From an uncultured cyanobacterium (lineage in GTDB: Bacteria > Cyanobacteriota > Cyanobacteriia > Phormidesmidales > Phormidesmidaceae), in NCBI GenBank assembly GCA_963793265.1, contig CAWBZI010000007.1:192001-256000 (forward strand): a stretch of 64,000 nucleotides of DNA. The letters are read 5' to 3'. Of the stretch, positions 935-47,022 are shown piece by piece. Numbering within the stretch: the stretch's first letter is position 1; each line of letters begins with the position of its first letter. Position numbers and translations under genes: made by a program. Below the pieces are notes generated by a model. It was given only the letters and a program-made list of their open reading frames with translations, searched no databases and was not told the origin of the DNA.

Positions 935-962
935 AACGCTGAAAGTATTGTAGCTTAAAGGC

Positions 963-1002: not shown

Positions 1003-1096
1003 ACAGAATTTTCGTATGTCAAAATGTGTTAACAAGCGCATCTATACTTTCTATATCGGTGCCTTACGGATTGCGCTGAGTCTCTCCATATCATTT

Positions 1097-1744: not shown

Positions 1745-1785
1745 GGTAGTCCTTAACGTGTAAGGATAATTCTATCGATTAGGCG

Positions 1786-2564: not shown

Positions 2565-2753
2565 GACTACCATGACCTAATTACTATAACGAACTACATA
2601 CGTATTAGGTTTTCTTTTTTCTAATTATACTGAGTCTCAAAATATACTGATGCTACAATGGAACAGTTAGCTATTTAGACGATGAGATTCATGAAAAGTA
2701 TCATTTTAATTAGGGCAGTATAAAGATACATTTACCGTACCAAATAACTTCTC

Positions 2754-3818
2754 ATGCAACTTCTGCGTAAAAGAACTATTAAATCTGATTCCGATGCAAG
2801 TAACACTGGTAGTCTTCAAGAACAGCTTGAAGAGAAAATGTTTAATCTTTTTGGACAGGTAGTAGAGAAGCGAAGCGACTATTATGACTCCCATCAAAAT
2901 GAGTTGCCAACAATTCAAAGTCTTCCTACACTAACCAAATATTGTGGCAATCAAAATGCTGCGATTTCCGGTGGTGCTAGCTTAGTTCCTGGGCCTTTAG
3001 ACATGGTGGCAGTAGTTCCCGAAATCACGTGGATTATCAAAAATCAAGTGGAGATGGTCTACGATATTGGCGTTGCATACGGTTACAGAAAGCAATTATC
3101 ACCTGAACTCCTTGCCAGCGTAGTCGGGTATGCATTAGGCGCAGGCACTCTAGGTCTAATAGCGCTACATGGACAAAAAGTGCTGGTAAAAAGAGCATCG
3201 CTTAGACTAATGCAAAAGCTCGTTAAGCTGATGGCAGGAAAAGTATCACAGAGACTACTCAAATCTATGGTGGGTAAGTGGGTTCCCGTTGCTGGTGCTG
3301 TTGCTTTAGCAGCATGGTCTAAATATTCAACACATGCAGTAGCTAAAAAGGCTATCTCTATTTTCGAGAAAGAATTTGTATTTTCTGATGATGAGGTAGG
3401 TCTTGAAGGGTATATGGAAAATCAGGATTCTTTAGAAGTATCAAAGGGCAATAGCTCAGGTACAGAGAGTCGAATCGAAAAAGCGAAGATTGAATCGCTT
3501 ATTAGCCTTATGCGTATAGACGGAGAAATTAAGTCAGAAGAACAAAAATTTATCGGACTCATTATTGAGGATTCTACTGTTCCTGATGGTGAGAGGATTG
3601 ACCTAATCAAGAAGATGAATCAAACTACCAAGTTGCAAGTCGATTATTCAGAAATCAAGAAGTCACCTGAAGATGCCGTCAGTCTGACTATTGATTTGGT
3701 AGCTCTATCGAAACAAGATGGTGAGTTTCACATTTCTGAGAAGATGTTCATTAAACAAGTAGGCAAAATGGTGGGCATGTCTCAAGACGACTTATCCGAA
3801 GTCATGTTGGCCTCATAG
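2754..3818 (+). CDS. EcsC-like protein with C-terminal TerB-like domain
   Basis: EcsC-like hydrophobic core (AISGGASLVPG...GKWVPVAGA). Two TerB-type DG-x(4-5)-E motifs (RIDGEIKSEE, KQDGEFHISE). Confidence 0.6.
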   Translation: MQLLRKRTIKSDSDASNTGSLQEQLEEKMFNLFGQVVEKRSDYYDSHQNELPTIQSLPTLTKYCGNQNAAISGGASLVPGPLDMVAVVPEITWIIKNQVEMVYDIGVAYGYRKQLSPELLASVVGYALGAGTLGLIALHGQKVLVKRASLRLMQKLVKLMAGKVSQRLLKSMVGKWVPVAGAVALAAWSKYSTHAVAKKAISIFEKEFVFSDDEVGLEGYMENQDSLEVSKGNSSGTESRIEKAKIESLISLMRIDGEIKSEEQKFIGLIIEDSTVPDGERIDLIKKMNQTTKLQVDYSEIKKSPEDAVSLTIDLVALSKQDGEFHISEKMFIKQVGKMVGMSQDDLSEVMLAS

Positions 3819-4186
3819 TTTGACATCTTCAAATTAGAGGTGTTTGCAAGATACTAATGTCAATGTAGTGATCTCATTAAGGGTTTATGTGCAGTGGTAA
3901 TTGTAGGTTTATTAGTACTTAATTGTACTGTCTAAGCTAATCTTAGCCAGGAAAACGACGCGCTAAACCTGTCTAAGACCTTATAAGACCCTAGTTATAG
4001 GAAAACTCTATCAAGCTCCTCTTTACTAAAATAGATTCAGTAGAGAAGGGCTAATCCATCTCATACCTATTTTCATACAGACAAGAATACTCGATTTATC
4101 CAGTTGAGCTATTAATGTTTGGGAGAGAAGTGCTAGATTCTACAGACTTGATACGCTAGAACCCTTATGTAAAAAGCAAGATACCA

Positions 4187-4229
4187 ATCGATGTCAACGA
4201 TGCGCTCTAACCAACTGAGCTATACGTCC
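4187..4229 (-). tRNA. tRNA-Val(GAC) 5' half only (integration-site fragment)
   Basis: Minus strand reads GGACGTA-TA-GCTC-AGTTGGTTA-GAGC-G-CATCG-TTGACAT-CGAT, then diverges. No T-arm or 3' acceptor strand follows. Confidence 0.88.
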
Positions 4230-4330
4230 TTAGTGGAAACTGGGCATAGCATGGCGGTTGCCTCCTATGCAAGTATGGATTTTGTTGAGGCAAAACTGCA
4301 CATGACGAAAGTTTAGTCTACTGGGAGTAT

Positions 4331-5173
4331 TTGATTTTGAGACGTTTGGTGTGGGGAATAGGCGCGATCGCACTACTCTATCTCGGGGCCTGCATAGCGC
4401 TATGGGCCTATCAGCCACGAATGATATTTTTCCCTGATGCTTTGGTGAAGAGTAGGCCAACTGAGGTAGGGCTAGCTTACGAAGACATAGAGCTGCAAGT
4501 TCAGGGCGATACTGTGCATGGATGGTGGATTCCGGCGGTGGGTGAGACGGCCCCGGTTGTGCTGTACCTGCATGGGAATGGCAGCAACGTGGGGGATTTG
4601 GTGGCGCGGGCGCAAAGGTTTCATGAGTGGAATTACAATGTGCTGCTGATCGACTATCGAGGGTATGGGCGTAGCAGCGGAAAGTTTCCGAATGAGCGGC
4701 GGGTGTATGAGGATGCTGAGGCAGCTTGGCAATATCTGACGCAGGAGCGGCAGGTGGCGGCAGAGCGGATTGTGATTTTTGGTCAGTCTTTGGGGGGAGC
4801 GATCGCAGTGCAGCTAGCGAGCCAAAAAAACGATGCAGCGGGGCTGATAGTCGAGTCGTCTTTTACGTCTATGAGAGAGATGGTGGGGCACTCATATTCG
4901 CGGCTACCGTCGCTGGTGCCAGTGAATTTGATTTTGACGCAGCGGTTTGATTCTTTGGCGAAGGTGCGATCGCTCAAAATGCCCTTACTGCTGCTGCATG
5001 GCACCGAAGATCAGATGGTACCGGCCAGGATGAGCCAGGCTTTGTACGATGCGGCAGGCGGTGAGAAGTCATTGGTGTGGCTTGAAGGCGGTGGGCACAA
5101 CGATTTGCCTTATAGAGAAGGGAGTGAGTATGCAGATAGTATTAGAGCCTTCGTCGAGCGGTATGCTAAGTAG
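4331..5173 (+). CDS. Alpha/beta hydrolase (Bem46/ABHD13-like), N-terminal membrane anchor
   Basis: YLHGNG, DYRGYG, GQSLGG nucleophile, HGTED and GGHND catalytic triad motifs. Confidence 0.85.
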   Translation: MILRRLVWGIGAIALLYLGACIALWAYQPRMIFFPDALVKSRPTEVGLAYEDIELQVQGDTVHGWWIPAVGETAPVVLYLHGNGSNVGDLVARAQRFHEWNYNVLLIDYRGYGRSSGKFPNERRVYEDAEAAWQYLTQERQVAAERIVIFGQSLGGAIAVQLASQKNDAAGLIVESSFTSMREMVGHSYSRLPSLVPVNLILTQRFDSLAKVRSLKMPLLLLHGTEDQMVPARMSQALYDAAGGEKSLVWLEGGGHNDLPYREGSEYADSIRAFVERYAK

Positions 5174-5198
5174 CAATTAATCGATTGCGCCTACTACG

Positions 5199-6833
5199 AT
5201 GAGCCGTATTGCAGCCAACTCACACTCTCAGCGTCGCCTCTGGAGCTGGATTGTTGTCATCCTTTTATGTTTGGGCGTTTTGTTTCGAGTGTCCTATCTC
5301 GATCGGCCTGTGTACTGGGTGGATGAGGTGGCAACGTCTATGCGGGTGTCGGGGTATACGCACGCGGATGTGCGGGAGCAGGTGGCGACAGGGTTGCCGG
5401 TTACGGTGGCGGATTTGCAGACGTTTCAGATGATTAGGGGCGATCGCCCCCGTTCAGATTTGTCGCGAGTGCTTACCCAAAGCCCAGAACATGCGCCGCT
5501 TTATTTTGTATTAGCCAGGTTTTGGGCAGAGGCATTGGGTGGTTCTGTTGTGGTGATGCGAAGCTTGCCCGTGTTGTTTGGGTTGTTGGCCTTCCCGGCA
5601 ATGTATGGACTAGGGAGAGCGCTGTTTCAAAAGCATCAAGGGCGGCATTTGATTGGGCTAAGTGCGATGGGGCTGCTAGCGATTTCTCCCTTTTTTGTAG
5701 CCTACTCGCAGGAGGCGCGGCCCTATAGCCTTTGGATACTGCTGCTGTTGCTGGTGAGTCAGTTTTTAGCGCGATCGCTCCAATCAAACCGCTGGCAGTG
5801 GTGGCTCAGCTACGCCCTTTCTCTTATTCTATGTTTGTACACCTCCCTGCTAACGGTGCTTGTTGTCTTTGGTCAGGGGCTAGCGGTGATAGCTTTTCAT
5901 CCCAAACGACGGCTCTCCTATACGATTGTGACAGGGGCTTCGCTGGTCGCGCTTCTACCCTGGGTAGTTGTGGTGTTTACCCACTGGACGAAGCTACAGA
6001 GCAATACGGTTTGGATGCAGGTGCCAACAACAATATGGGCGATTTTAGGCACATGGTTTTATAGCCTAGCAGTGCTGTTCTTTGATGTGCCAGTGGCGGT
6101 AAATCCAGTGCTATTCGTGATGGAAGTGGTTGCAGCAACGCTAACGCTAGCGGTAATTGGCTATGCTTTTTACCACCTCATCCGCAGCGCACCTCGTTCT
6201 GTAATAGGATTCTTTTTGGCAGGGACGTTTTCAATCCCGCTGATGCTGTTGTTAATTGACATTGTTCGTGACGGACAGGCCGCTGCTACGCCCAGATACC
6301 TGATGCCGACTCATATAGGTGCTTTGGTGGCAACGGCTTATCTAATAGGCGATCGCCTTTTTGCAGCGAATAATTTGACAGGAAATCAGACAGCTAAGCT
6401 GTCAACTAAGCAGTGGAATAGTGCGATCGCCTTACTCCTATCCGTCAGCCTATTGTCTTGCATTATCGGTCTGAATAAAGACTCTCCCTATCTAAAAAGT
6501 CGCAACCTGAGCAACGCAGGAATTATAGCCGAGCTAAACAACGTCCAATTTGTTCAGCTTGTCACAACGCCCTACTACATTCAAGATGTGATCTCTTTAA
6601 GCTATCGGTTAAATCCTGACATCAGCATCTATTTCTTACCCGAGAAAAGCGACCCCGGCGAGCTACTGACAAAAGTTGTGAGCCTAAATAAGCCCACCTT
6701 CTTGTTTACACCTTCAGAAGAGCTGAAAGCAGTTGTAAAAGAGAATCAGTTCGGTAATTTGCGATCCGTCTTCGAGCCTGCACCTCTCATTTCAGGAGAC
6801 TACGGTCTGACGCTTTGGAGGCTTGAATCATGA
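5199..6833 (+). CDS. GT-C fold glycosyltransferase (GT39/PMT/ArnT-like)
   Basis: YWVDE motif after TM1, EHAPLYF, YSQEARPYSL, many TM helices. Confidence 0.85.
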   Translation: MSRIAANSHSQRRLWSWIVVILLCLGVLFRVSYLDRPVYWVDEVATSMRVSGYTHADVREQVATGLPVTVADLQTFQMIRGDRPRSDLSRVLTQSPEHAPLYFVLARFWAEALGGSVVVMRSLPVLFGLLAFPAMYGLGRALFQKHQGRHLIGLSAMGLLAISPFFVAYSQEARPYSLWILLLLLVSQFLARSLQSNRWQWWLSYALSLILCLYTSLLTVLVVFGQGLAVIAFHPKRRLSYTIVTGASLVALLPWVVVVFTHWTKLQSNTVWMQVPTTIWAILGTWFYSLAVLFFDVPVAVNPVLFVMEVVAATLTLAVIGYAFYHLIRSAPRSVIGFFLAGTFSIPLMLLLIDIVRDGQAAATPRYLMPTHIGALVATAYLIGDRLFAANNLTGNQTAKLSTKQWNSAIALLLSVSLLSCIIGLNKDSPYLKSRNLSNAGIIAELNNVQFVQLVTTPYYIQDVISLSYRLNPDISIYFLPEKSDPGELLTKVVSLNKPTFLFTPSEELKAVVKENQFGNLRSVFEPAPLISGDYGLTLWRLES

Positions 6834-8065
6834 AGATTGCAATTATTAGCTCTGGGTTTTTGCCGGTTGTTGATGGGGTGACGGTAGCCCTTTACCAGCG
6901 GCTGCGAGTGCTGAGCGAATTGAAACACGAGGTATTAGTGCTATGTCCAGACTATGCATCGATTGAGTCAGTCTATCCTAGTTGGCGCGATTATCAGGGC
7001 GAGGTTTTACCGGGGGTGCAGGTAAAGGGGGTGCCGAGCGAGCCTTTCATGGGGGTGGCGTTTGAGCGGAATATGAGCGGGAAGGCTAATCAGGTGTTGC
7101 AGCAGACGCTAAAGGCTTTTAATCCAGATGTTGTGCATGTAGACGAGCCCGATCGGCTGTTTTTAGGGCTATTGAAAGCGCCTGGTGTTGCTTATGCTAA
7201 GAGAAACCACGTTCCCTGTCTGGGGTTCTATCATACGAACTTCATTGACTATATCGAAGACTTTTTGCCGCTGCGGGGCGTTGCAATTTCTTTTTTGCAG
7301 TGGGTTTCGATGTTGTTTATACGGCCCGTGCTGCACGCTTACGATGCGATTTTGGTGTCTAGTCCGGCAGCAGAGGCTAGGCTAAAACAATTGCGAGTGA
7401 AGGGCGTGGTGTGCGATCGCTTCTTAGGCGTAGACACAGCAGCCTTTGACGCGCAGACACGCCAGCCCAATTTCTTCAAAGCACAGTACGGCATTAACGA
7501 CATTGACAACAAAGTAAAAATAGTCTTCTTAGGGCGGCTGACGCCTGATAAAGGCTGGCAGTTTACGCTGAAGGCTTTGGCGGCTTGGATGAAAGATCCT
7601 GCGAATCAAGCGATCGCCTCTCAGATGGCAATCGTAATTGTAGGCAGCGGCGAGCTAAAAGTCGAAATTGAATCAAAACTACAGTCTCTGGGGCTAACGG
7701 CTTATTTCCTGGGACGGATTGCGCCTGATGCGGTGCCTGCTCTGCTGGTGAATAGTGATATTCATGTGACGACTTCTGAAAAGGAGACGCTGGGGTTGAC
7801 GATATTAGAGGCTTTTGCGGCAGGGATTCCAGCGATCGCGCCCAATGCAGGCGGCGTCACAACGCTTATGCGCGACGGTGAGAACGGGCTGTTGTTCGAG
7901 CCTCAGAATATCGAGAGTTTTGGGCGATCGCTCTCAATGCTGGTCGTAAATGAGGGAATGCGGCAGCAGATGGGCGATCGCGGAAGACGAGATGTCGAGC
8001 CCTACAGTTGGCGCGTGGTGGTGAATAATTTGATCGAGGTCTGGAAAGCTTACATACCCGACTGA
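6830..8065 (+). CDS. GT4 glycosyltransferase, SqdX-like paralogue
   Basis: FLPVVDGV N-terminus, YHT, GRL..DKG, ETLGLTILEA (EX7E). ATGA overlap with the upstream gene. Confidence 0.88.
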   Translation: MKIAIISSGFLPVVDGVTVALYQRLRVLSELKHEVLVLCPDYASIESVYPSWRDYQGEVLPGVQVKGVPSEPFMGVAFERNMSGKANQVLQQTLKAFNPDVVHVDEPDRLFLGLLKAPGVAYAKRNHVPCLGFYHTNFIDYIEDFLPLRGVAISFLQWVSMLFIRPVLHAYDAILVSSPAAEARLKQLRVKGVVCDRFLGVDTAAFDAQTRQPNFFKAQYGINDIDNKVKIVFLGRLTPDKGWQFTLKALAAWMKDPANQAIASQMAIVIVGSGELKVEIESKLQSLGLTAYFLGRIAPDAVPALLVNSDIHVTTSEKETLGLTILEAFAAGIPAIAPNAGGVTTLMRDGENGLLFEPQNIESFGRSLSMLVVNEGMRQQMGDRGRRDVEPYSWRVVVNNLIEVWKAYIPD

Positions 8066-8192
8066 ATATGGAACCAGCGCCTTCCAAATCTGGCTAATTT
8101 TATGGAACCTTGTCTTGACAGCGCCGTTCTTTCAGTTTAGTTAGATATATACAGTCAGCTCTAAAAGTACGCATTCACAAACTTCCTCACGC

Positions 8193-11100
8193 ATGAGTTC
8201 ATCCCGGTCTGCTTCGCCTGAGCCTATTGCAATTGTCGGTATTGGCTGCCGATATCCGGGGGGCGCTAATACGCCTGACGCCTTTTGGCAAATGATTCGC
8301 AATGGCATCGATAGCGTGACGGAGGTACCCGCCTCTCGCTGGAATGCAGCCGCTATTTATGACCCTGATGTGAGTGTGCCGAATAAAACGAATACTCGCT
8401 GGGGTGGCTTTTTAGAGCAAGTCGATCAGTTTGACCCGCAATTTTTTGGCATTGCGCCGCGCGAAGTGGCGACGATGGATCCACAGCAAAGGCTTTTGCT
8501 AGAGGTGACCTGGGAGGCGCTAGAAGATGCCGGGCAAATTCCCGAGCGTTTGCGCGGGTCTAAAACGGGCGTTTTTATTGGGATAGGGACGCACGACTAC
8601 TCGATTATGCTGTGGCAGCAGCCGGTGAATGACCCGTATGCGACAACCGGTACGGGGAACTGCATTGCGGCGAATCGAATCTCTTATCTGTTCGACTTTA
8701 AGGGGCCGAGCTTAGCGGTAGATACGGCCTGTTCATCGTCGTCGGTGGCGGTGCATTTGGCCTGCCAGAGTATCTGGAATGGTGAGAGCCAAATGGCGGT
8801 GGCGGGCGGCGTGAATGTGCTGCTGCTGCCGACGGTGACAGCCGGGTTTTCTAAGGGCGGCTTTATGTCGGGTGAGGGCCGGTGCAAGAGCTTTGATGCG
8901 AGTGCCGATGGCTATGTGCGCAGTGAAGGTGCAGGGCTGGTGATATTGAAGCCGCTCTCGCAGGCGGTGGCTGATAATGACGCGGTATACGCGGTAATTC
9001 GTGGAAGCGCGGTTAATCAGGACGGCTTTAGTCAGGGGATGGCGGCTCCAAATGCTGAAGCGCAGGCGGCGGTGCTGCGGGTGGCGTATGAACAGGCGGG
9101 TGTTGACCCGGCGAAGGTGCGGTATGTGGAGGCGCACGGGACAGGGACGAAGCTGGGCGATCCGGTGGAGGCGCAGGCGCTAGGGGCGGTTTTGAGTGGG
9201 GGGCGATCGCCTGAAAATCCTTGTATTATCGGCTCTGTAAAAAGCAACATCGGCCACACTGAAACAGCAGCTGGGGTCGCAGGTGTGATCAAAGCGGCTT
9301 TAATCCTCAAGCACAAGGAGATTCCGCCTAGCCTGCATTTTTACTCAGCAAATCCGGCGATTGACTTTGAGCAGTTGAGGCTGCGGGTAGAGACAGGCGT
9401 TACGTCTCTTTCACAGGAGTCTGAGATATATGTGGGCGTGAATTCTTTTGGGTTTGGAGGGACTAATGCACATACCGTATTAGCTTCGTTTGAGACGGCT
9501 AAAGTAGAACAGAATAAGTCTGTTTTAGAGGCTCAGATTTTAGCGCTTTCAGCTAAGAGTGAAGCGGCGCTAAGGGATTTAGTTGTGCGGTATCAGGAGC
9601 TATTACGCTTAGAGCCTGATCTGGGGGCTTTGTGCAGAGCGGCGGGGGTGAAGCGATCGCACTTTTCTCATCGGGTTTCTTTTGTGGCCAAGTCAGTCTT
9701 GCAGCTACAAGAAAAGATAAAGGACTGGCTAGCTGGCGATGACGCAATCGGCGCTGTGTCTGGTCGGAAGGCAGAGACTACCGGCATTGCCTTTCTCTTT
9801 ACCGGGCAAGGGTCGCAGGCAGTAGGCATGGGGCGATCGCTCTACAAAACTCAGCCTGCTTTTCGCGACGCGCTAGATTGCTGTTCTAAAATACTCAGTC
9901 AGCACAATGTCCCTTTATTAGATGTGTTGTTTGAGGGGAAGCCGACCGCAGAGGCCATTCATCAAACAGCTTATACGCAGCCGGTTTTATTCGCTTTTGA
10001 ATATGCACTGGCTCGACTTTGGATGTCGTGGGGCATTCAGCCTTCGGTAGTGCTAGGACATAGCTTAGGCGAATATATGGCTGCTTGCCTGGCGGGCGTG
10101 TTTAGTTTAGAAGATGCGCTGAAGCTAGTTACAGCCAGAGGTCGGCTGATGCAGGCGTTGCCGTCAGGAGGAGCGATGGTGTCTGTGATGGCGAGTGCGG
10201 CACTATGTAAAGAGGCCATTGCGGCAGTCGGTAAGGAAGCTTCGATTGCAGCGGTGAATGGGCCGCAGAGTACTGTTGTTTCTGGGCATGAGGAGGCGAT
10301 CGCGCAAATCACCCAACAGCTCGAACAACAAAACATTAAGTGCAAGCCGCTTACCGTCTCTCACGCCTTTCATTCAGATCTCATGGAGCCGATGCTAGAT
10401 GAGTTTCGAGAAGTGGCAAATTCGGTCATTTTCCATAAGCCCGAGCTGCCGCTAATTTCTATGCTTACAGGAGAGGTAGCCACCGCAGAGATCGCGACGG
10501 CTGACTATTGGGTGCGACATGTGCGATCGCCCGTCCAATTCCTAGATGCCATAAAAACCCTACATAAAAGACAAGAACGCACCTATCTTGAAATTGGCGC
10601 AAAGCCCATTCTGCTCGGGATGGCTCGAATCTGTTTGCCCAATGCCGAAGATGTGCGCTGGTTGCCTAGCTTGCGGCCTCAACAATCTTCTGAGCAAGTC
10701 GAAATGCTCACTAGCCTGGCGAAGCTCTACGTACAGGGCGCAAACGTCAACTGGGCGGCAGTTGATCCCAACCTGAAAGCAACCGCGATATCGCTACCCA
10801 CTTATCCCTTTCAGCGGCAGCGCTACTGGTGGGAAGGGGCGAGCATTCCTAGTATGGAGCCTCGGCAGTCAGCGTCTCAAGGACTGGCTTCTACCACAGA
10901 ACATCCTCTAATTGGCAATCGTCTGCTGCTAGCAGGCACTAGAGAGCAGCGGTTTCAAAGCTTATTGAGTGCTCAATCACCTGGCTATCTAGCAGATCAT
11001 CGTGTTTTAGAGAACGTTGTTTTGCCGGGAGCGGCTTATTTAGAGATGGCGATCGCCACGGCGGCTCACTGGTGCGGTTCTACAAAATTCTCACTCTCTC

Positions 11101-14100
11101 AGGTATCTATCGAACAACCGCTAATACTAAAAGAGAAGGCAACAGTAATACAGTCGGTACTAGCACCTGATCAAAATGAGCAGGCCACGGTTCAAATATT
11201 TAGCTCAGATTTGTCCGAAGAGAATTTTACACGTCATGCGATGGCGACAGTTGAAAAAGTCTCTTCCAAAGAGAACTTACTGCTAGAGAGGCGATCGCTT
11301 AAGAACATTCAAGCTGCCTTGCAGTTTCACGCTGTTGATGTTGACGGCTACTATCAAAAGCTTAGCGAGCAAGGGCTGAACTACGGCAAAAGTTTTCGGG
11401 TTATTCAACAGCTTTGGCGACATGAAGGGCAGGCGCTAAGCCAAATCAGCCGTGAGGGCGCTATAGATCTTGCATATTCTCTTCATCCCGCCCTGCTAGA
11501 CGGCTGCTTTCAAACCATAGGCGCGGCGGTGCAGAACAACATAGCACTCGGCACTTACCTCCCTGTTGGACTAGATTGGCTTCAGGTTTACCGCCCACTG
11601 CGGCAGTCGGGCTGGTGCGCCGTAAAGATCACGCAGCCTGATGCAAGCGCTAACGGCAGCCGAGACGGGGCAACACCTACGCAGATCAAAGCCAACCTGT
11701 CCATTTGGGATGAAGCAGGCGAGCTGGCAGCGCAAATCACAGGAATGACGCTTAGATACGTCAATCGCAGCGCTTTACAACAGCTTTTTGGTGCGCCCGA
11801 AACGCCCGCACACAATTGGCTATACGATTTCGCCTGGTTAGCTCAGCCCAAGCCAGAAGGTAAGAAGAAAATAGTGGCTCAAGATACGTCTACCTGGATT
11901 ATCTTTGCAGATGACAAAGGCATTGGGCAACAGATTACAGAAGCTTTGCAGGCGGCGAGCGGCTCAGTTAAAGTCGGATCGCAGCAGCGCTGTATTTCGG
12001 TGAAGAAGGGCGATCGCTATCAAGCCTTAAAGAAAAACACATACGCGCTAAATCCTGCTAGCGCCGAAGATTTCACGCAGCTATTCACCGATCTCACCAT
12101 TACCTTAGCGGCTGAGCAAGGCGATCTCAACTGTCGAATGCTCTATCTATGGGGTTTGGATGCTGAAGGCAGCGAGATTGGAGACTTGAGCGTACAGGAA
12201 CACGTTTGCGGCGGACTGTTGAACTTAGTAGGCGCGATCGCTCAGTTCCCTGCTCTTTCTGCTCGCCTATGGATCACAACGCAAGCGGCACAGGCAGTAG
12301 ACGGCCCTTCATCGCTCAAGCTTCAGCAAACGCCACTATGGGGCCTGGCGCGAACCCTGCGATTAGAGCATCCCGGTTTGCAGTGCATCTGCTTAGATGT
12401 CGCAGAGACATTCTTTTCTAAACTCAGCCCGAAGAGCTTGAACCTGTTGCTAGCCGATCTCTGTTACCCGGATGCCGAAGAACAGATTGCCTATCGACAA
12501 GATCTCCGGTTTGTCGCTCGCCTACTTTCTCACTCAGATGAAAAAGCCTCTCAACCCTTACAAGTTCCTGACAGTGACTCTTTCCGCCTGGGTCTTTCGA
12601 GCTACGGCGTACTCGATCATCTAACGCTAGTGCCCGCAAAACGACGCTTTCATGCAGGCGCAGCAACGCCCCAAGCGGGAGAAGTTGAAATTCAGGTGAA
12701 GGCTTCAGGGCTAAACTTTCGTGATGTGTTGAACGCGCTAGGAATGCTGCAATCGGTGGCAGAGAGCATGGGCTATGCCACCTCGGCGGAGGTGCCTTTT
12801 GGTGGTGAGTGTGCAGGGATTATAACGGCAGTTGGGCCAGGCGTGAAGCGTGTGCAGGTGGGCGATGCAGTGATTGCCGCGCAGGCCGTAGGCAGCTTGA
12901 GTCAGTTTGTAACGGTGCCGGTAGATTTTGTGGTGCCAAAGCCGCCGTCTATGAGCTTTGCCGATGCGGCGACGATACCCACCACGTTTTTGACGGCCTA
13001 TTATGGGCTGGTGCACTGCGCTAGGTTGAAGAAGGGCGATCGCATCTTGATTCATGCCGCAGCAGGCGGTGTAGGGCAGTCGGCGGTTCAGCTCGCACAG
13101 CAGATTGGTGCTGAGGTGTTTGCAACCGCAAGCGAGCCTAAGTGGAACTTCTTGCGGGCGATGGGTGTTAAGTATGTCAGTAACTCTCGATCACTTGACT
13201 TTGCCGATGAGATCTTGGCGCTGACAGAGGGTAAAGGCGTAGATGTTGTCTTCAACAGTTTGAATGGAGAGGTAATCGGCAAAAATATAGAGGTACTAGC
13301 GCCACAGGGTCGGTTTGTTGAAATCGGTAAAATTGGGATCTGGACGACGGATCAGATGCAGGCGACTCGGCCCGATGTGAGCTATTTCCCATTTGACCTG
13401 CTAGAGGTTTCTAATGCTGACTCACAAATTATTGCTCAAATGTTTGCTGAGCTGATGACCCGCTTCAAGTCAAGAAGTCTTCAGCCTTTACCTAAAACTG
13501 TGTTTCCCATTGAGTTTGCTCCTGACGCCTTCCGCTATATGGCCCAGTCGCGGCACATTGGGAAGGTTGTGCTGACGCTGCCGGAGATTGCGCCGTATCA
13601 GGAGATGATTGATGGTGAGGCGAATTATTTGCTGGCTGGGGGATTGGGGGCCTTAGGGCTTAGGGTGGCTGAGTGGCTAGTGAGTCAGGGTGCGCGTCAT
13701 TTGATTCTGTTAGGGAGGCGATCACCTGCTGCCGCTGCAAAAGAAACTATCTCGCATCTTGAAAACGAAGGCGCTACTGTTAAAGTTATCCAAACTGACA
13801 TTGCCAGTGCAAAAGAACTTAAAACGGCCCTTTCTTCTTTCATAAACGCCTCATCTGCTCACCCGATCAAAGGCGTGTTTCATTTAGCGGGCGTTCTAGA
13901 AGACAAACTCCTTATAAACCAAACCTGGGAAAGCTTTGAAACTGTCATGAAGCCCAAGATTGCGGGCGCTTGGAACTTACACTATCTCACTCAAGACCTA
14001 CCGCTCGATCACTTTGTCTGTTTTTCTTCGATTGTCTCTTTGATGGGTTCTTTGGGGCAAGGCAACTATGCGGCGGCGAATACCTTTCTCGATGGCCTAG

Positions 14101-16136
14101 CACATCATCGTCGCGGGCTCGGACTGCCAGCGCTAAGCATCAACTGGGGGCCTTGGGCCGAAGCTGGGATGGTCGCTGAGCTAGACACTCGCAGCCAAGA
14201 CCGCATGAAAGCGCAAGGATTGACGGCAATCTCGCCGGACGTGGGTCTACAGATATTAGGTGAGGCGATGCACCAAGCGAGAACGCAGGTGGGCGTAGTG
14301 CCGATTGACTGGGCTGCGTTTATGGCATCCGCAGGCGGGCAGGCGAGCGGCGCAAAGTCCTCGCTGTTTACAGCACTCAGACCAGCGGCTAAACCGGCTA
14401 AGGCGGCATTACGCGCTGAGGTGCTTCAGCAGTTGACGACCGTCGATGCGCGAGATCGCCCCGCCCTATTAGCCACCTACATTCAAGCTCAGCTCGCAAA
14501 AGTCATGGGCTTCAGCTCACCAGAGGCCATCAGCCTCAACGAACAGTTTGGCGACTTAGGCATGGATTCTCTCATGGCCGTCGAATTCAGCAATCGCCTG
14601 CAAACCAATCTCAATCACCCCATTCCACAAACGCTCGCCTTTGACTATCCCACCGTCAATGCCCTATCCAAGTATTTAGTGCAAAAAATCGCGCCTGCAA
14701 CAGATGCCGAAAAAGCACAGCCTGCCGCTATGAAGAAAGCACCAGCCTCTACGTCTATTAAATCCACTGCCGCTGAATCCACTGCCGCTAAATCCACTAC
14801 CGCTGAATCCACTACCGCTGAATCCACTACCGCTAAATCTACTGCTGTTGAACCTATAGCAGAACATTCTCTTCCCCCAAAACACACGCCGAAGCAAAAC
14901 AAAGCTCCCTCATACAAGCCTCCGGCAGCGCACTATCAGTTCTCACAAATGCCTGACTACCGGCGATTACAGCAGGATCTAGAGCGGCTCGAAGATCTCA
15001 AAAATCCTTTCTTCGCCGTTCACGATGGTATTGCCAAAGACACCACGCATATTCAGGGGCGATCGCTCATAAACTACGCCAGCTACAACTATCTCGGACT
15101 CTCAGGCCATCCCGCCGTCAGCGAAGCCGCCCAAAAGGCAATTACGCAATACGGCACCTCCGTTTCGGCAAGTCGAGTGGTTTCAGGCGAGCGCAGTGTT
15201 CATCTGAAATTAGAGCAGGCGATCGCACAGTTCTTAGGCACCGAAGACTGCATTACCTTCATCGGCGGACACGCCACCAACGTAACTACCATCGGCCACC
15301 TCTTCCAAGAAAAAGACCTCATCCTTTGCGACGCGCTTAGCCACAACAGCATTCGCGAAGGATGCAAGCTCTCAGGTGCAACCATTATCGAGTTTCCTCA
15401 CAACGACTGGCAGGCGCTTGACGAGCTTTTATATGAACATCGCCCTCATCATGAGAAAGTATTGGTCGCCATTGAAGGCGTTTATAGTACAGATGGCGAT
15501 CTGGCTGTGCTGACAGAATTTGTGCGGCTAAAAGCAGCGCATAAGGTGTTCTTGATGGTAGATGAGGCGCATTCTATTGGCGTGACGGGTGCGACCGGGC
15601 GAGGTGTGGGTGAGCACTTTGGCGTAGCTGCTGGCGATGTAGATATGTGGATGGGCACGTTGAGTAAGTCTTTTGCGAGCTGTGGCGGCTATATCGCTGG
15701 GTGTTCTGAGCTGGTGAAATACCTGAAATATACGGCTCCAGGATTCTTGTTTAGTGTGGGAATGGCTCCTGCGAATGCAGCAGCAGCACTCGCGGCTTTG
15801 CAAACAGTTCAGCGAGAGCCAGAGCGGGTGACTCAGGTGCAGGCGCGATCGCGTTTGTTCCTCTCTTTAGCCAAAGCCCAAGGACTCAACACCGGAGACA
15901 GCCACGATTCTCCCGTAGTCCCCATTATTGTTGGCGAACCTTACAAGGCCGTTCAACTCTCTTACACACTGCTTCAGCAAGGCATCAACGTACAGCCAAT
16001 GGTTTACCCTTCAGTGCCTTACAACGCCGCTCGCTTACGATTCTTTTTAAGCTGCTTACACACCGAAGAACAGATTACAAAAACCGTACAGACTATTGCC
16101 GACGAGCTAATGATTATCAACGCAGCGGCCTTATAG
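8193..16136 (+). CDS. Type I reducing PKS (KS-AT-DH-ER-KR-ACP) fused to a C-terminal PLP-dependent alpha-oxoamine synthase
   Basis: KS: DTACSSS, HGTGT, NIGH. AT: GHSLG, HAFHS (malonyl type). DH: HRVLENVVLP, HPALLDG. ER: LIHAAAGGVG. KR: GGLGALG, NYAAAN. ACP: GMDSL. AOS: SYNYLG, DEAHS, GTLSKS. Confidence 0.95.
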   Translation: MSSSRSASPEPIAIVGIGCRYPGGANTPDAFWQMIRNGIDSVTEVPASRWNAAAIYDPDVSVPNKTNTRWGGFLEQVDQFDPQFFGIAPREVATMDPQQRLLLEVTWEALEDAGQIPERLRGSKTGVFIGIGTHDYSIMLWQQPVNDPYATTGTGNCIAANRISYLFDFKGPSLAVDTACSSSSVAVHLACQSIWNGESQMAVAGGVNVLLLPTVTAGFSKGGFMSGEGRCKSFDASADGYVRSEGAGLVILKPLSQAVADNDAVYAVIRGSAVNQDGFSQGMAAPNAEAQAAVLRVAYEQAGVDPAKVRYVEAHGTGTKLGDPVEAQALGAVLSGGRSPENPCIIGSVKSNIGHTETAAGVAGVIKAALILKHKEIPPSLHFYSANPAIDFEQLRLRVETGVTSLSQESEIYVGVNSFGFGGTNAHTVLASFETAKVEQNKSVLEAQILALSAKSEAALRDLVVRYQELLRLEPDLGALCRAAGVKRSHFSHRVSFVAKSVLQLQEKIKDWLAGDDAIGAVSGRKAETTGIAFLFTGQGSQAVGMGRSLYKTQPAFRDALDCCSKILSQHNVPLLDVLFEGKPTAEAIHQTAYTQPVLFAFEYALARLWMSWGIQPSVVLGHSLGEYMAACLAGVFSLEDALKLVTARGRLMQALPSGGAMVSVMASAALCKEAIAAVGKEASIAAVNGPQSTVVSGHEEAIAQITQQLEQQNIKCKPLTVSHAFHSDLMEPMLDEFREVANSVIFHKPELPLISMLTGEVATAEIATADYWVRHVRSPVQFLDAIKTLHKRQERTYLEIGAKPILLGMARICLPNAEDVRWLPSLRPQQSSEQVEMLTSLAKLYVQGANVNWAAVDPNLKATAISLPTYPFQRQRYWWEGASIPSMEPRQSASQGLASTTEHPLIGNRLLLAGTREQRFQSLLSAQSPGYLADHRVLENVVLPGAAYLEMAIATAAHWCGSTKFSLSQVSIEQPLILKEKATVIQSVLAPDQNEQATVQIFSSDLSEENFTRHAMATVEKVSSKENLLLERRSLKNIQAALQFHAVDVDGYYQKLSEQGLNYGKSFRVIQQLWRHEGQALSQISREGAIDLAYSLHPALLDGCFQTIGAAVQNNIALGTYLPVGLDWLQVYRPLRQSGWCAVKITQPDASANGSRDGATPTQIKANLSIWDEAGELAAQITGMTLRYVNRSALQQLFGAPETPAHNWLYDFAWLAQPKPEGKKKIVAQDTSTWIIFADDKGIGQQITEALQAASGSVKVGSQQRCISVKKGDRYQALKKNTYALNPASAEDFTQLFTDLTITLAAEQGDLNCRMLYLWGLDAEGSEIGDLSVQEHVCGGLLNLVGAIAQFPALSARLWITTQAAQAVDGPSSLKLQQTPLWGLARTLRLEHPGLQCICLDVAETFFSKLSPKSLNLLLADLCYPDAEEQIAYRQDLRFVARLLSHSDEKASQPLQVPDSDSFRLGLSSYGVLDHLTLVPAKRRFHAGAATPQAGEVEIQVKASGLNFRDVLNALGMLQSVAESMGYATSAEVPFGGECAGIITAVGPGVKRVQVGDAVIAAQAVGSLSQFVTVPVDFVVPKPPSMSFADAATIPTTFLTAYYGLVHCARLKKGDRILIHAAAGGVGQSAVQLAQQIGAEVFATASEPKWNFLRAMGVKYVSNSRSLDFADEILALTEGKGVDVVFNSLNGEVIGKNIEVLAPQGRFVEIGKIGIWTTDQMQATRPDVSYFPFDLLEVSNADSQIIAQMFAELMTRFKSRSLQPLPKTVFPIEFAPDAFRYMAQSRHIGKVVLTLPEIAPYQEMIDGEANYLLAGGLGALGLRVAEWLVSQGARHLILLGRRSPAAAAKETISHLENEGATVKVIQTDIASAKELKTALSSFINASSAHPIKGVFHLAGVLEDKLLINQTWESFETVMKPKIAGAWNLHYLTQDLPLDHFVCFSSIVSLMGSLGQGNYAAANTFLDGLAHHRRGLGLPALSINWGPWAEAGMVAELDTRSQDRMKAQGLTAISPDVGLQILGEAMHQARTQVGVVPIDWAAFMASAGGQASGAKSSLFTALRPAAKPAKAALRAEVLQQLTTVDARDRPALLATYIQAQLAKVMGFSSPEAISLNEQFGDLGMDSLMAVEFSNRLQTNLNHPIPQTLAFDYPTVNALSKYLVQKIAPATDAEKAQPAAMKKAPASTSIKSTAAESTAAKSTTAESTTAESTTAKSTAVEPIAEHSLPPKHTPKQNKAPSYKPPAAHYQFSQMPDYRRLQQDLERLEDLKNPFFAVHDGIAKDTTHIQGRSLINYASYNYLGLSGHPAVSEAAQKAITQYGTSVSASRVVSGERSVHLKLEQAIAQFLGTEDCITFIGGHATNVTTIGHLFQEKDLILCDALSHNSIREGCKLSGATIIEFPHNDWQALDELLYEHRPHHEKVLVAIEGVYSTDGDLAVLTEFVRLKAAHKVFLMVDEAHSIGVTGATGRGVGEHFGVAAGDVDMWMGTLSKSFASCGGYIAGCSELVKYLKYTAPGFLFSVGMAPANAAAALAALQTVQREPERVTQVQARSRLFLSLAKAQGLNTGDSHDSPVVPIIVGEPYKAVQLSYTLLQQGINVQPMVYPSVPYNAARLRFFLSCLHTEEQITKTVQTIADELMIINAAAL
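14760..14849 (+). repeat. Intragenic 15-bp tandem repeat x6 encoding a (K/E)ST(A/T)A linker
   Basis: Units (A/G)AATCCACT(G/A)CCGCT, the sixth degenerate, between the ACP and AOS domains. Confidence 0.92.
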
Positions 16137-17191
16137 TGGCTGTCAAATCTTCTCGCACCTACCGAATCGTCGCGCTACCGGGTGAAGGCATTGGCCCTGA
16201 AGTGGTAGAAGCTTGTCTGAAAATTCTTCAAGAACTGTCAGGAACAGAGGGCTTTACGGTTGTAATAGATTACGGTTGGATTGGCGAACCGGCCCGGCAA
16301 CAGTTTGGCTCTGCCTTGCCCAAGGAGACTTTGCAGCTATGCGAAGGTGCGGACGGTATTTTGTTCGGTGCGGTTACTAAAGGAGGACTGTTAGAGCTAC
16401 GGCGACACTTTGACTTATTTACCAACCTGCGTCCGGTTCGGCCTTCATTGAGCTTGATCCATACCTCCGCTATTAAAGCCGAGCGGTTGCAAAACGTCGA
16501 TTTACTCTTTGTTCGAGAGCTAGTCAGCGGAATCTATTTTGGCGAGTCGGGGCGATCGCACAGCGAAGGATTTCACACCATGCGCTACGCCGACAGTGAA
16601 ATTCGTCGAGTTGCAAAAGTCGCTCTGGGATATGCACAGTCTCGGCGGCAACGCCTTTGTGTGGCGCACAAGGAGAACGCACTGCCTCATTTGCACTGGA
16701 CACGAATCGTAAAAGAAGAGGCGCAAGCTTTTGAAACTGTGAAGGTAGAGCCGATGCTGGTAGACAATTTGGCAATGCAGCTTGTAACGCGGCCTGCTGA
16801 CTTTGATGTTGTGCTGGCGGGGAATTTATTTGGTGATATTTTGAGTGATTTAGGAGGTGCGATCGCTGGCTCAATCGGTTTACTCGGCTCAGCTAGCCTT
16901 AACGCCGACGGGTTTGGTATGTACGAAGCTGTGCATGGTACGGCCCCTGACATTGCCGGTAAAGGCATTGCTAATCCGCTCGGAACCTTAGCAGGTGTCG
17001 TCTTGATGCTAGAGCAATGGGGTGAAATTCGAGCGGCTAAGAGGCTCGTGTCTATCCAAGAAAAGCTGCTTGCTCAGGGCTACCGAACGGCTGACTTATT
17101 TCAACCGAACGCACCGCATCATCAGCAAATGGTCACCACTGCCGAACTTGTTAATCTATTTATCACATTAATTCGGGAGCCTGACCGGTAG
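16136..17191 (+). CDS. Isocitrate/isopropylmalate dehydrogenase family protein (LeuB-like paralogue)
   Basis: GIGPEV, NLRPV, VRE..SGIYFG, NLFGDILSD and HGTAPDIAG motifs. GTG start overlaps the PKS TAG. Confidence 0.88.
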   Translation: MAVKSSRTYRIVALPGEGIGPEVVEACLKILQELSGTEGFTVVIDYGWIGEPARQQFGSALPKETLQLCEGADGILFGAVTKGGLLELRRHFDLFTNLRPVRPSLSLIHTSAIKAERLQNVDLLFVRELVSGIYFGESGRSHSEGFHTMRYADSEIRRVAKVALGYAQSRRQRLCVAHKENALPHLHWTRIVKEEAQAFETVKVEPMLVDNLAMQLVTRPADFDVVLAGNLFGDILSDLGGAIAGSIGLLGSASLNADGFGMYEAVHGTAPDIAGKGIANPLGTLAGVVLMLEQWGEIRAAKRLVSIQEKLLAQGYRTADLFQPNAPHHQQMVTTAELVNLFITLIREPDR

Positions 17192-17238
17192 AATGCGATC
17201 ACTTTATTCAATATGTCCTATTACTTTTTTTCCTACAA

Positions 17239-18042
17239 ATGAAAGCTCAAGAAAACACTATGATCTGCTTTAATCGATTGCTGGCAGGCAAACGCTTGAG
17301 CTATACAAAAGCGGTTTTGTTAAGTGCAATTTGTGTAAATGTGATTGCGCCCGGCGAGGCACTAGCCGAACCTTTACCCAGTGTCACCTCTACAATCGAT
17401 GCCTCAGACGGAATCGCAACAGTACAAGACGATTGGAAGAGTGAGCCTGCCGCTGAAGCTCTACAGCCCAGCAGTCAGCTTACCAGTGAGTTTATCCCTG
17501 AAGAGATTTCTCTTAGCGCTGAGAATCCTTCTGTTCTACTCACTCAGCTCGAAGATGAAACAGATGAGACGCCAAAGTTTGGCACCGCTGGTAAGCAACG
17601 ACTGTATGTACAAGGCGCAGTTGCAAGTGATTTTGATGATGAAACGCTCGGCTTGGTCGGTGTAGGCGTATCTCATTTCTTCTATGACGCGCACAGCGTT
17701 AATTTAGAGCTGAACGCGCTGGCTTTTGATCAGCCAGGAGACAATGCGCTCGGGTTAAATCTGAATCTTTTGGTGCGATCGCACTGGATTCGCGGCGAAA
17801 ACTGGTCTGTTTTCATCGATGGCGGCGCAGGCATCATCGGCACCACCAGCGACGTACCCAGCGAAGGATCAAGCTTCAACTTCACCCCCCAAGTCGGCGG
17901 CGGCGCAACCTTCCAAATCAACGATAAACAGCGGCTTATGACCGGCCTCCGCTACTACCACATCTCCAACGCCGACACCTTTGAGAGCAACCCAGGCTTG
18001 GACGCCTTGATGGGCTATGTGGGCCTCAACTTTCCGCTATAA
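17239..18042 (+). CDS. PagL-like (acyloxyacyl hydrolase) outer-membrane beta-barrel
   Basis: Signal-peptide-like N-terminus, FNFTPQVGGG, catalytic-type YHISNA...NPG motif, terminal beta strand. Confidence 0.72.
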   Translation: MKAQENTMICFNRLLAGKRLSYTKAVLLSAICVNVIAPGEALAEPLPSVTSTIDASDGIATVQDDWKSEPAAEALQPSSQLTSEFIPEEISLSAENPSVLLTQLEDETDETPKFGTAGKQRLYVQGAVASDFDDETLGLVGVGVSHFFYDAHSVNLELNALAFDQPGDNALGLNLNLLVRSHWIRGENWSVFIDGGAGIIGTTSDVPSEGSSFNFTPQVGGGATFQINDKQRLMTGLRYYHISNADTFESNPGLDALMGYVGLNFPL

Positions 18043-18147: not shown

Positions 18148-18885
18148 CTAACTTGCGGCTTTGGTTGCAGCGCCAATGTACATTACGCAATCGCCCTCAA
18201 AGCTCACCTGAAACTCACCGCTCTCCCAATACCGCCGTAAACTCTTCCACTTTCCTAACACACCTTTCCCGAACAGATCAAAGCCATTCACGGCAACAGT
18301 CTGCATTTTCTGTTCTTCAATCATCCCCACGAGTTCTGCGGGCTTAATGAACTTATCCCAATCGTGAACGCCGCAGGGAATTTGTCTGAGCGTATTTTCT
18401 AGTAGCCAAATCATCACCAGCTTTGACTGCCAGGTGCGGTTGATCGTATCGAAGCAAAACCAGCCGCTCGGCCCTAGCACTCGGCCAATCTCAGCAATAG
18501 TCTGCTGTGGATCTTCGACATGTTCTAAAACATCTACGCACACGACTACATCAAATGCTGCATCGTGAAAAGGTAGCTGCTCAGCATAACCCTGCTGATA
18601 GCTAATTTTAAGATTCACTTCATCCGCGTGACGACTAGCGGCTGCAATACAGGCGGCTGATTGATCGATTCCCGTTACCTGTGCGCCGCGTTCTGCTAAA
18701 AACTCACAGGTAAAGCCGCCCCCACAGCCAATGTCTAAGACGCTAAGTCCTCGCCAGTCGGTAATATACTGGTCAAAAAACTGGAACCGTAGCGGATTAA
18801 GCCGACTGAGCGGGGCGACGGTGGCGCTTTTGTTCCACCATTGAGCGGCCCACTGGTCATAATAGGAGAGGTTGTTACGCTGCAT
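18148..18885 (-). CDS. ubiG: UbiG-like SAM-dependent O-methyltransferase
   Basis: WW...PLSRLNPLR, VLDIGCGGG, DVLEHV, TINRT and HDWDKFIKP motifs. Confidence 0.8.
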   Translation of the reverse strand: MQRNNLSYYDQWAAQWWNKSATVAPLSRLNPLRFQFFDQYITDWRGLSVLDIGCGGGFTCEFLAERGAQVTGIDQSAACIAAASRHADEVNLKISYQQGYAEQLPFHDAAFDVVVCVDVLEHVEDPQQTIAEIGRVLGPSGWFCFDTINRTWQSKLVMIWLLENTLRQIPCGVHDWDKFIKPAELVGMIEEQKMQTVAVNGFDLFGKGVLGKWKSLRRYWESGEFQVSFEGDCVMYIGAATKAAS

Positions 18886-18893
18886 GAATTAGG

Positions 18894-19664
18894 GTGATTG
18901 ATACAAAAGAGGCTAACGTTTCTATCATTATTCCGACGCTAAATGAGGGCCGCTGTTTGGCCAGGACGCTTCGTCATCTAACCATATTGGAGCCCCCTGC
19001 TAAAGAAATTATTGTTGTTGACGGTGGCAGTACGGATGATACGGTAGCGATCGCTCAAGCCGCCAAACAGTCCGCAAAACAGTCCGTCAACGCCACTATC
19101 CTCCATAGCCCCCAGCCCAACCGCGCCCTACAAATGAACTTAGGCGCTGCGCAAGCCACAGGCGATTTCCTGTGCTTTCTACACGGCGACACGCTAGTGC
19201 CTGACGATTTAGTCGCTATCATTGCCACGACCCTGTCCGATTCTAAAGTAGCAGGCGGCGGTTTTATCTCGTTGATGACAGGCAAAACAACCCGGTGGGG
19301 CACTTCGCTGCACAACAGCTTAAAGACGTACTACGCGCCATTACTCTTTCGGCCCAGACTGTTCTTCCAAAGAGGATTGAGGCTGTTGTTTGGAGATCAG
19401 GTCATCTTTTGTCGTCGGCAAAATTTTATGGACTGCGGCGGCTACGACAGCGCACTTAGCATTATGGAAGAAGCTGATTTGTGTATTAAGCTGGCGCAAA
19501 AAGGTCGCATCTGCCAGGTTAACCGCACTGTACGTTCAAGCGATCGCAGAGTTGCAAAGTGGGGGCCACTAAAAGCCAACTTCATCTATCTATCCATTGG
19601 CTTTCTATGGGGCATCGGCGTTTCATCCAACACGCTCAAACGCTTTTACGAAGAAGTCCGCTGA
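18894..19664 (+). CDS. GT2 glycosyltransferase, TIGR04283-like (rSAM/arsenosugar-associated)
   Basis: SIIIPTLNE, VDGGSTD, RALQMNLGA, FLHGDT, FGDQ, IMEE and SSDRR motifs. Confidence 0.82.
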   Translation: MIDTKEANVSIIIPTLNEGRCLARTLRHLTILEPPAKEIIVVDGGSTDDTVAIAQAAKQSAKQSVNATILHSPQPNRALQMNLGAAQATGDFLCFLHGDTLVPDDLVAIIATTLSDSKVAGGGFISLMTGKTTRWGTSLHNSLKTYYAPLLFRPRLFFQRGLRLLFGDQVIFCRRQNFMDCGGYDSALSIMEEADLCIKLAQKGRICQVNRTVRSSDRRVAKWGPLKANFIYLSIGFLWGIGVSSNTLKRFYEEVR

Positions 19665-20350: not shown

Positions 20351-20382
20351 AAAACCTTCTTTATCACACCTACTTTTTAGCA

Positions 20383-26857: not shown

Positions 26858-28018
<1,161 letters not shown>

Positions 28019-47008: not shown

Positions 47009-47022
47009 CTACGCTAGGCGAA

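Follow-up and report, generated by a model that had tools for sequence, protein, structure and literature searches.

A gene set built around a fused polyketide synthase-alpha-oxoamine synthase in a cyanobacterium, a candidate route to aryl-bearing envelope glycosphingolipids

The canonical bacterial ceramide pathway consists of Spt, bCerS and CerR. The formation of sphinganine by a polyketide synthase (PKS) and an alpha-oxoamine synthase (AOS) is also already known: the iterative PKS and the AOS of Pseudomonas fluorescens MYb115 (PfSgaAB) were shown by experiment to produce C24-C28 sphinganines, and that study describes the PfSgaB-type AOS as serine-specific, with a short-chain dehydrogenase/reductase (SDR) resembling 3-ketodihydrosphingosine reductase (KDSR) proposed for the reduction (PMC12134224). 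For cyanobacteria, PMC8895605 reports two ceramides and, as of 2022, no genetic basis for them; one of the two, found in field-collected Moorea, is a C17 glucosylceramide of the plain type (PMC6272925). In the present study, we analyzed a window of 64,000 nucleotides (the whole stretch, positions 192,001 to 256,000 of contig CAWBZI010000007.1, assembly GCA_963793265.1) from an uncultured cyanobacterium of the family Phormidesmidaceae, which contains a block of six genes (4331-18042) including a gene for a PKS-AOS fusion.

We found that the six genes are part of a set spread over several loci, which genomes possess or lack as a unit. It is probable that the product of this set is an aryl-bearing glycosphingolipid of the cell envelope, with the aryl chain either in the base or as an acyl group; the narrower reading from sequence, a glycosylated sphingolipid in which the base itself carries the aryl tip, is tentative, at slightly less than an even chance. 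The gene set would work like PfSgaABC, with a KS-AT-DH-ER-KR-ACP module, an AOS that appears to be of the same branch and a KDSR-like SDR. However, it is not a strict member of that system: PKS and AOS are separate in Pseudomonas and fused here, the KS belongs to another clade, and an aryl loader, a free KS, hph genes, GT4 and GT-C glycosyltransferases (GTs) and a PagL-like protein are added, whereas the Pseudomonas lipid has a plain C24-C28 chain and a phosphoglycerol head.

The six open reading frames (ORFs) are all on the plus strand (Table 1). Their coordinates and the two overlapping junctions reported in a first-pass annotation of the window were confirmed: the GT-C and GT4 genes overlap by ATGA at 6830-6833, and the PKS-AOS gene shares one base, 16136, with the gene that follows. 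Pfam domains in the single 2647-aa frame of the fusion run KS-AT-DH-ER-KR-ACP, a low-complexity linker and the AOS (Aminotran_1_2). Catalytic motifs are intact in each PKS domain and in the AOS, the motif HAFH marks the AT as malonyl-type, and no thioesterase is present in the protein, so that its description as one fully reducing malonyl-type module ending in an AOS stands. Such fusions are a family. The ACP-AOS part was matched by 1342 proteins of 1455-4633 aa; among the 120 matches listed, KR, ACP and AOS were found in all 120 and the KS motif in 101, and the named proteins were nearly all labelled cyanobacteria.

The AOS domain is 56% identical to an AOS of a Pseudomonas capsule locus (the Pseudomonas comparison used the plasmid homologue L076, not PfSgaB itself), 53% to a WcbT-type enzyme of the Burkholderia group and 48% to RkpG of Sinorhizobium, and it has active-site motifs in common with these enzymes. 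Identity to BioF is 35%. Unlike the AOS of the canonical ceramide pathway, which likewise initiates a long-chain base that is later acylated and glycosylated, it lies in another clade and is only 37% identical to a serine palmitoyltransferase (SPT); it scores under all three SPT cut-offs. It groups with RkpG/WcbT/SgaB-type enzymes, apart from SPT, BioF and Kbl, which bears on the phylogenetic check suggested in the first-pass annotation. In quick trees, a branch with support 98 set 41 fused AOS rows apart from the free cyanobacterial AOSs and the capsule-type rows next to them, and the fused rows were sister to three capsule-type rows rather than nested within them; in a reduced LG+G4 tree, 25 of 26 fused rows, not all, fell together. 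Serine is the predicted substrate.

This relationship bears on the possibility that the lipid serves to anchor or carry a polysaccharide of the capsule or cell surface, the role suggested for the products of RkpA/RkpG and WcbR/WcbT. The sister position of the AOS, the 39% identity of the SDR to RkpH and the presence of several glycosyltransferases would fit such a role. However, the KS of the fusion lies outside the RkpA/WcbR clade (FastTree, 72 rows), in a clade of its own with support 100 next to the KSs of free-KS and of fatty acyl-AMP ligase (FAAL)-PKS proteins. Furthermore, capsule biosynthesis, capsule export or LTA-synthase-family genes flank four proteobacterial loci, and none was found among the annotated conserved neighbours in cyanobacteria (only neighbourhoods being covered). 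An anchor role is thus very unlikely.

The gene directly 3' of the fusion was called LeuB-like in the first-pass annotation, which left it unexplained; the Iso_dh gene exists, but it is assigned as HphB, predicted to perform the last step in the homologation of an aryl 2-oxo acid, and not as a leucine gene. The score of the protein does not reach the leuB cut-off, and its identity to proteins of Nostoc, Microcystis and Planktothrix and to entries labelled 3-benzylmalate dehydrogenase is 63-69%; a role in leucine synthesis was ruled out by its identity of only 37% to the genome's own LeuB. A 13-residue loop (the lid) of solved isopropylmalate dehydrogenases is missing, as it is in all 96 readable homologues (24 of 120 were not readable by the pattern). 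A preprint describes a missing 14-residue lid in HphB and finds the enzyme promiscuous (10.64898/2026.06.15.732371). According to PMC12961565, HphA, HphCD and HphB together add one carbon to phenylpyruvate and hydroxyphenylpyruvate. Besides HphB and a normal LeuB, the genome holds HphA and the fused HphCD; thus the lid-less dehydrogenase, fused LeuD-LeuC isomerase and LeuA-like synthase of Nostoc punctiforme are all represented. In that organism, Hph feeds homo-amino acids to peptides, whereas here it is tied to a PKS loader. The identification of this enzyme as HphB suggests that an aromatic starter is used, taken up by another PKS that is encoded at a different site in the genome.

The window holds only part of the pathway. 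The six genes had at first been taken for the whole; further parts lie on contigs C7, C4 and C2 of the same genome. The loader PKS on C7 has McyG as the best PDB match of its A-T didomain (E 1e-145), and McyG loads phenylpropanoids (PMC2885083). In both proteins, A-T is followed by a hybrid-type KS, but the module here is fully reducing, no peptide synthetase lies downstream, and three pocket residues are Gly in place of the Val/Ala/Ala of McyG. The roomier pocket VAVWGGGSG was read in 16 loci; hphB is present in the genomes of 15 of these, and the remaining locus belongs to the relic genome G438 described below. A McyG-like pocket (IGS...ASG) was read in seven loci, five of them only partly; six of the seven are from genomes with only LeuB-level matches or none, and the seventh is a Planktothrix plasmid. 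Pocket residues were read by motif, in a numbering scheme that we assume for the A domain, and six of 29 loci gave no reading.

In another possible reading, the amino acid used by the AOS is homophenylalanine or homotyrosine, provided by HphABCD, and the product would be a vitroprocine-like amino-ketone or amino-alcohol. The position of hphB directly 3' of the PKS-AOS gene in 16 of 33 fusion loci would suit this. However, hphA adjoins the loader in seven of the seven loci with both flanks read, it is the loader A pocket that varies with hphB, and the AOS motifs are alike with and without hphB and match those of an SgaB-like enzyme. We regard it as the least likely of the explanations considered.

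The loader ends in a C-terminal helix, which we take to be of the cyanobacterial docking type, and a CurL-like partner docking helix stands at the start of the free KS encoded on C4. The Cys-His-His triad of the free KS was kept in the 11 distinct copies read, although the second His was not matched in one. The free KS has no ACP of its own, its copies (615-823 aa) show the AT in stages of loss, and its clade is sister to the complete module that precedes a free AOS in genome G385. Because of the kept triad, the loss of the AT, the docking helices and this sister module, we infer that the free KS may bridge the chain from the loader to the ACP of the PKS-AOS.

The SDR encoded next to the free KS has TSC10, a 3-ketodihydrosphingosine reductase, as its best PDB match (E 2e-29), another difference from the canonical ceramide pathway. 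In 45 chosen genomes of the phylum, it was found in 16 of 25 AOS-positive and in none of 20 AOS-negative genomes. A TSC10-like SDR that tracks the AOS indicates that the product is likely to be an amino alcohol rather than a free ketone, and it lends support to the 3-keto-sphingoid-like base first proposed as the intermediate. As for N-acylation, no GNAT-type ceramide synthase was seen among the annotated neighbours of the fused type, no genome-wide search for one having been made. However, an ACP-less FAAL encoded on C2 belongs to a clade (support 98, 13 rows) that includes the second FAALs of FAAL-ACP-AOS clusters already provided with a loading FAAL, which suggests a later step such as N-acylation. 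A FAAL-ACP-PKS encoded nearby was considered as a core part and set aside as optional, with orthologues of 67-73% identity in six of the ten genomes searched and none found in G017, G014, G404 and G185.

Several of the encoded proteins appear to act in the envelope. The hydrolase has one N-terminal hydrophobic helix as an anchor and is a candidate transacylase or deacylase. The GT-C protein, with 10 hydrophobic segments, is likely to act at the outer face of the inner membrane, using a lipid-linked sugar, and the GT4 enzyme is a candidate for the first sugar transferase; its homologues (45%) stand beside free-standing FAAL-ACP-AOS clusters in L044 and L051 (L and G numbers denote loci and genomes, some of which may be the same genomes). 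The initial view of this enzyme as SqdX-like was abandoned, since it is only 26% identical to the GT4 beside an sqdB-like gene. The latter two genes (26867-29317, the separate GT4 at 28172-29317) are probably the true sqdB-sqdX pair. The model of the PagL-like protein (pLDDT 89.6) is an eight-stranded barrel, in agreement with its first annotation, with PagL (2erv) as the best Foldseek match (TM 0.71-0.77) and OmpW as a close second. His, Ser, Asn and Asp are invariant in 16 of 16 aligned sequences, the His-Ser-Asp set being kept, and the barrel is predicted to be a lipid deacylase or transacylase; co-occurrence points to the cluster's own product as its substrate. Signal-peptide-like starts were noted by hydropathy and inspection on the SRPBCC, DUF1400 and PagL-like proteins; on account of such an N-terminus, a reading of the SRPBCC protein as a cytoplasmic resorcinol-type aromatase/cyclase was rejected. 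These signals, together with the anchor and the barrel fold, suggest a membrane-bound product finished in the envelope, the destination originally proposed and now supported by several exported or outer-membrane partners.

The distribution of these genes was examined in 121 genomes of the family, 11 of which carry a fused-type AOS of at least 69% identity. With neighbour cut-offs chosen to exclude paralogues, the GT4 orthologue was present in all 11 carriers and none of the 110 others, and HphB in 10 of 11 and none of the 110, the sole miss being a 660-contig assembly. The PagL-like orthologue was found in 10 carriers plus one broken copy (in G438), GT-C in 11 plus G458, and the hydrolase in 10 plus G438, whereas the loader (at least 59% identity) and the SDR each occurred in all 11 and in two others. 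In answer to the synteny check proposed earlier, the neighbours thus co-occur with the PKS-AOS, and do so more than chance would explain. A membrane protein (c14) with a close orthologue in 10 of 11 carriers was rejected as a marker, since 57 of the 121 genomes pass its cut-off. G438 is a decaying relic, in which the equivalent of window position 5392 is joined straight to that of 17574 with the loss of about 12 kb, including GT4, PKS-AOS and hphB, and in which the loader is truncated (L105:7044-8419 and L104:7876-11088). Of the 15 further carrier genomes searched outside the family, 14 gave a loader match, in some cases a partial one. In the phylum, this AOS type occurs in 26 of 401 genomes, five of them with the fusion.

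Parts that are unlinked here are contiguous elsewhere. In G017, one run holds hphCD, hphB, the hydrolase, two GT-C genes, an Asp/Arg-hydroxylase-family gene, GT4, PagL, PKS-AOS, hphA and the loader, together with the free KS, SRPBCC, SDR and a membrane protein. In G488, the C2 block and that of the window likewise form one run. A plasmid of Planktothrix agardhii NIVA-CYA126/8 carries the loader, the free KS in two frames, SRPBCC, GT4, two GT-C genes, PKS-AOS, DUF1400 and a FAAL; like this strain, Synechococcus sp. PCC 7335 and Stanieria cyanosphaera PCC 7437 are named carriers in culture.

Such a patchy occurrence (11 of 121 family genomes; five fused among 26 AOS matches in 401 phylum genomes), the plasmid-borne copy, the deletion in G438 and the origin of the Hph and McyG-type parts in secondary metabolism would also be consistent with a diffusible glycosylated amino-alcohol rather than a structural envelope lipid. 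However, the GT-C enzymes, the polyprenol-type GT2, the exported START protein and the outer-membrane barrel suit a membrane-bound product, and the annotated genes conserved around the fused type include no efflux transporter; a diffusible metabolite seems improbable.

The chemistry that we infer throughout from the observed genes, motifs, trees and co-occurrence would run as follows. HphA, HphCD and HphB would extend phenylpyruvate or its 4-hydroxy form by one carbon, and the McyG-type loader would take the resulting aryl acid and extend it once. Through its docking tail, the loader would pass the chain to the AT-less free KS for condensation onto malonyl on the ACP of the PKS-AOS, which would reduce the chain and probably extend it further before the AOS sets it free by condensation with serine, giving a 3-keto base. 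The KDSR-like SDR would then give an omega-aryl sphinganine, and the ACP-less FAAL would N-acylate it. GT4 would add a sugar on the inside and the GT-C enzymes more on the outside, and the exported START protein, the hydrolase-fold enzymes and the PagL-like barrel may carry and re-acylate the lipid in the envelope.

Several observations weigh against this route. The co-occurrence counts are not independent, because nine of the 11 carriers are from one genus, of which 17 other genomes are without the fusion. The loader gene in this assembly carries one frameshift; however, two metagenome runs from two studies contain contigs, from relatives and not from this strain, with one extra base at this site, so that an assembly error is likely. 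At the HphA pocket positions compared (A73, D157, A159, M186 and S242, placed by motif with no characterised HphA aligned), the Ala159 and Ser242 equivalents were found in 120 of 120 HphA-like proteins, but Cys and Leu replace Asp157 and Met186, two differences from characterised HphA; together with the promiscuity of HphB, this means that the starter could be another 2-oxo acid. The ACP-less FAAL is a putative amide synthase, so assigned from phylogeny. The PKS-AOS has no N-terminal docking helix, as in the self-standing SgaA/RkpA type (with a single exception among the fusion proteins in which the motif was found, the KS begins no more than 37 residues from the N-terminus), and thus may not take the aryl chain at all. 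Finally, iteration by the PKS-AOS is unproven because its KS groups with modular cyanobacterial KSs and not with a proven iterative type.

Single-module iterative PKSs such as Mas are known to be primed by FAALs. A convergent route could be envisaged, in which a lone iterative PKS-AOS either primes itself, as SgaA does, or is primed by the ACP-less FAAL, and in both cases yields a plain very-long-chain sphinganine, while the loader and free KS provide a separate aryl N- or O-acyl group; the product would still be an aryl-bearing envelope glycosphingolipid. Besides the missing docking helix, the domain order, which is the same as in the iterative SgaA, is in accord with this. On the other hand, the free KS keeps a full elongation triad without an ACP of its own, and priming by the ACP-less FAAL is made less likely by the presence of its clade in clusters where an ACP-loading FAAL is already at hand. 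We consider the convergent route unlikely, yet a serious possibility. The lone iterative PKS of the first-pass annotation thus survives as one of two options for the long chain, whereas HphB points to an aryl starter on a second PKS, as in the linear route through the free KS.

Table 1. Features of the gene set in the window and elsewhere in the same genome
Feature	Location	Strand	Basis or remark
Membrane-anchored alpha/beta hydrolase	4331-5173	+	Pfam Hydrolase_4; GxSxG...D...H intact
GT-C (PMT_2/ArnT-like) integral membrane glycosyltransferase	5199-6833	+	Pfam PMT_2
GT4 glycosyltransferase	6830-8065	+	Pfam
PKS-AOS fusion, 2647 aa	8193-16136	+	Pfam, motifs
KS of PKS-AOS	8220-9494	+	
AT of PKS-AOS	9792-10745	+	
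DH of PKS-AOS	10902-11780	+	
ER of PKS-AOS	12663-13577	+	
KR of PKS-AOS	13620-14162	+	
ACP of PKS-AOS	14478-14678	+	
AOS domain of PKS-AOS, RkpG/WcbT/SgaB-like branch	14958-16103	+	Identities, trees
HphB-type 3-benzylmalate dehydrogenase	16136-17191	+	Pfam Iso_dh; lid absence; homologues
PagL-like eight-stranded outer-membrane barrel	17239-18042	+	Pfam PagL; structure model
Loader PKS, A-T-KS-AT-DH-ER-KR-ACP	C7:121422-129736		
hphA, LeuA-like synthase	C7:129868-131085		Divergent from loader PKS
hphCD, fused LeuD-LeuC isomerase	C7:138471-140174		
Free KS, SRPBCC/START protein, SDR	C4:381959-385401		
3-ketosphinganine-reductase-like SDR	C4:384592-385401		Unlinked to window block here
Second hydrolase, DUF1400 hydrolase, GT-C-like membrane protein, methyltransferase, ACP-less FAAL, FAAL-ACP-PKS, small GT2	C2:277272-293503		

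The GC content of the block is 0.519, against 0.506 for the genome and 0.402 for the 4.3 kb upstream; a promoter and terminator scan gave no signal, with 10 and 11 sites where shuffled sequence gave 11.3 and 17.3. The low-GC stretch at 1-4330 (0.40) adjoining the cluster contains a DUF3987 gene, a UvrD-like C-terminal fragment, an EcsC/TerB-like gene and a transposase-like ORF pair (1786-2564), presumably IS1-like, and looks to have been acquired separately. Downstream, at 18148-21596, genes on mixed strands encode a UbiG-like methyltransferase, TIGR04283 and TIGR04282 glycosyltransferases (named arsenosugar-biosynthesis families), a DUF547 protein and a rhodanese; none of these was seen adjoining PKS-AOS at the other loci. 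Elsewhere in the window are a low-GC patch (30247-31233) with a CBS-domain anti-phage protein, DS-11, above the NCBIfam cut-off, and taurine-type ABC transporter genes with a class III aminotransferase (43903-48459).

At other loci, the loader PKS of L066 (756-11404) adjoins a photosystem II gene run (PsbO and cytochrome c-550 by Pfam), and further genes there are presumably photosystem II- or phycobiliprotein-like. The type-B loaders (L115, L021 and L026) stand beside an extra conserved block of an FAD oxidoreductase, a GT2 and unannotated proteins, to which L115 adds FG-GAP, TIM-barrel and GT-C genes. Three fusion loci that fall in cyanobacterial clades (L014, L022 and L024) are on short contigs of assemblies labelled Gracilibacteria, Alphaproteobacteria and Tatlockia group, and are probably mis-binned. 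A second cyanobacterial design, FAAL-ACP-AOS (L043, L044, L046, L047, L050-L053 and L040), often comes with a KDSR-like SDR, a second, ACP-less FAAL, Asp/Arg-hydroxylase-family genes, GT4 and B12 radical SAM or Rieske genes, and is a candidate route to plain ceramides. In contrast, the AOS clusters of L056, L058, L048 and L061 have HlyD/FtsX/ABC export genes, and no KDSR-like SDR was found in them; their products are more likely to be exported amino-ketones. In L059 and L127 (G385), one run encodes a FAAL-PKS, a PKS, a free AOS, a FemAB-like GNAT and an SDR; no second FAAL was found within the stretch read, and the GNAT may replace it as the N-acyltransferase.

No description of this cluster was found in the literature covered, which leaves out most subscription journals, and no aryl-tipped sphingolipid in the literature searched. 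A paper on the genus Planktothrix has no passage attributable to the cluster, and the terms Synechococcus, Leptolyngbya, Nostoc, Microcystis and 'cyanobacter' are absent from the supplements of PMC12134224. CF-8 of Calteau et al. was ruled out as a prior description, as it is a hydrocarbon PKS family. As to the earlier statement that the lipid class is not established for cyanobacteria, only two ceramides are known from the phylum, and they were reported without genes (PMC8895605).

What is new here is the fusion of PKS and AOS, the proposed aryl starter, the set of tailoring enzymes for the envelope and the phylum of the host. One far-reaching and rather doubtful extension is that cyanobacteria have a sphingolipid family of their own, a branch of which would make omega-aryl glycosphingolipids by means of a homologated aromatic 2-oxo acid primer, an AT-less KS bridge, an ACP-less FAAL as a new ceramide synthase, and lipid-A-style finishing by GT-C, PagL and an Asp/Arg-hydroxylase-family oxygenase. 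If the proposed route is true, it would provide the first genetic basis for sphingolipid synthesis in cyanobacteria, the aryl-tipped sphingolipid would be a new use for the Hph homologation pathway, and a new type of N-acylating enzyme would be suggested. The gene set and the related FAAL-ACP-AOS-SDR clusters name candidate sphingolipid genes, and thus the question of how cyanobacteria make these lipids becomes directly testable.

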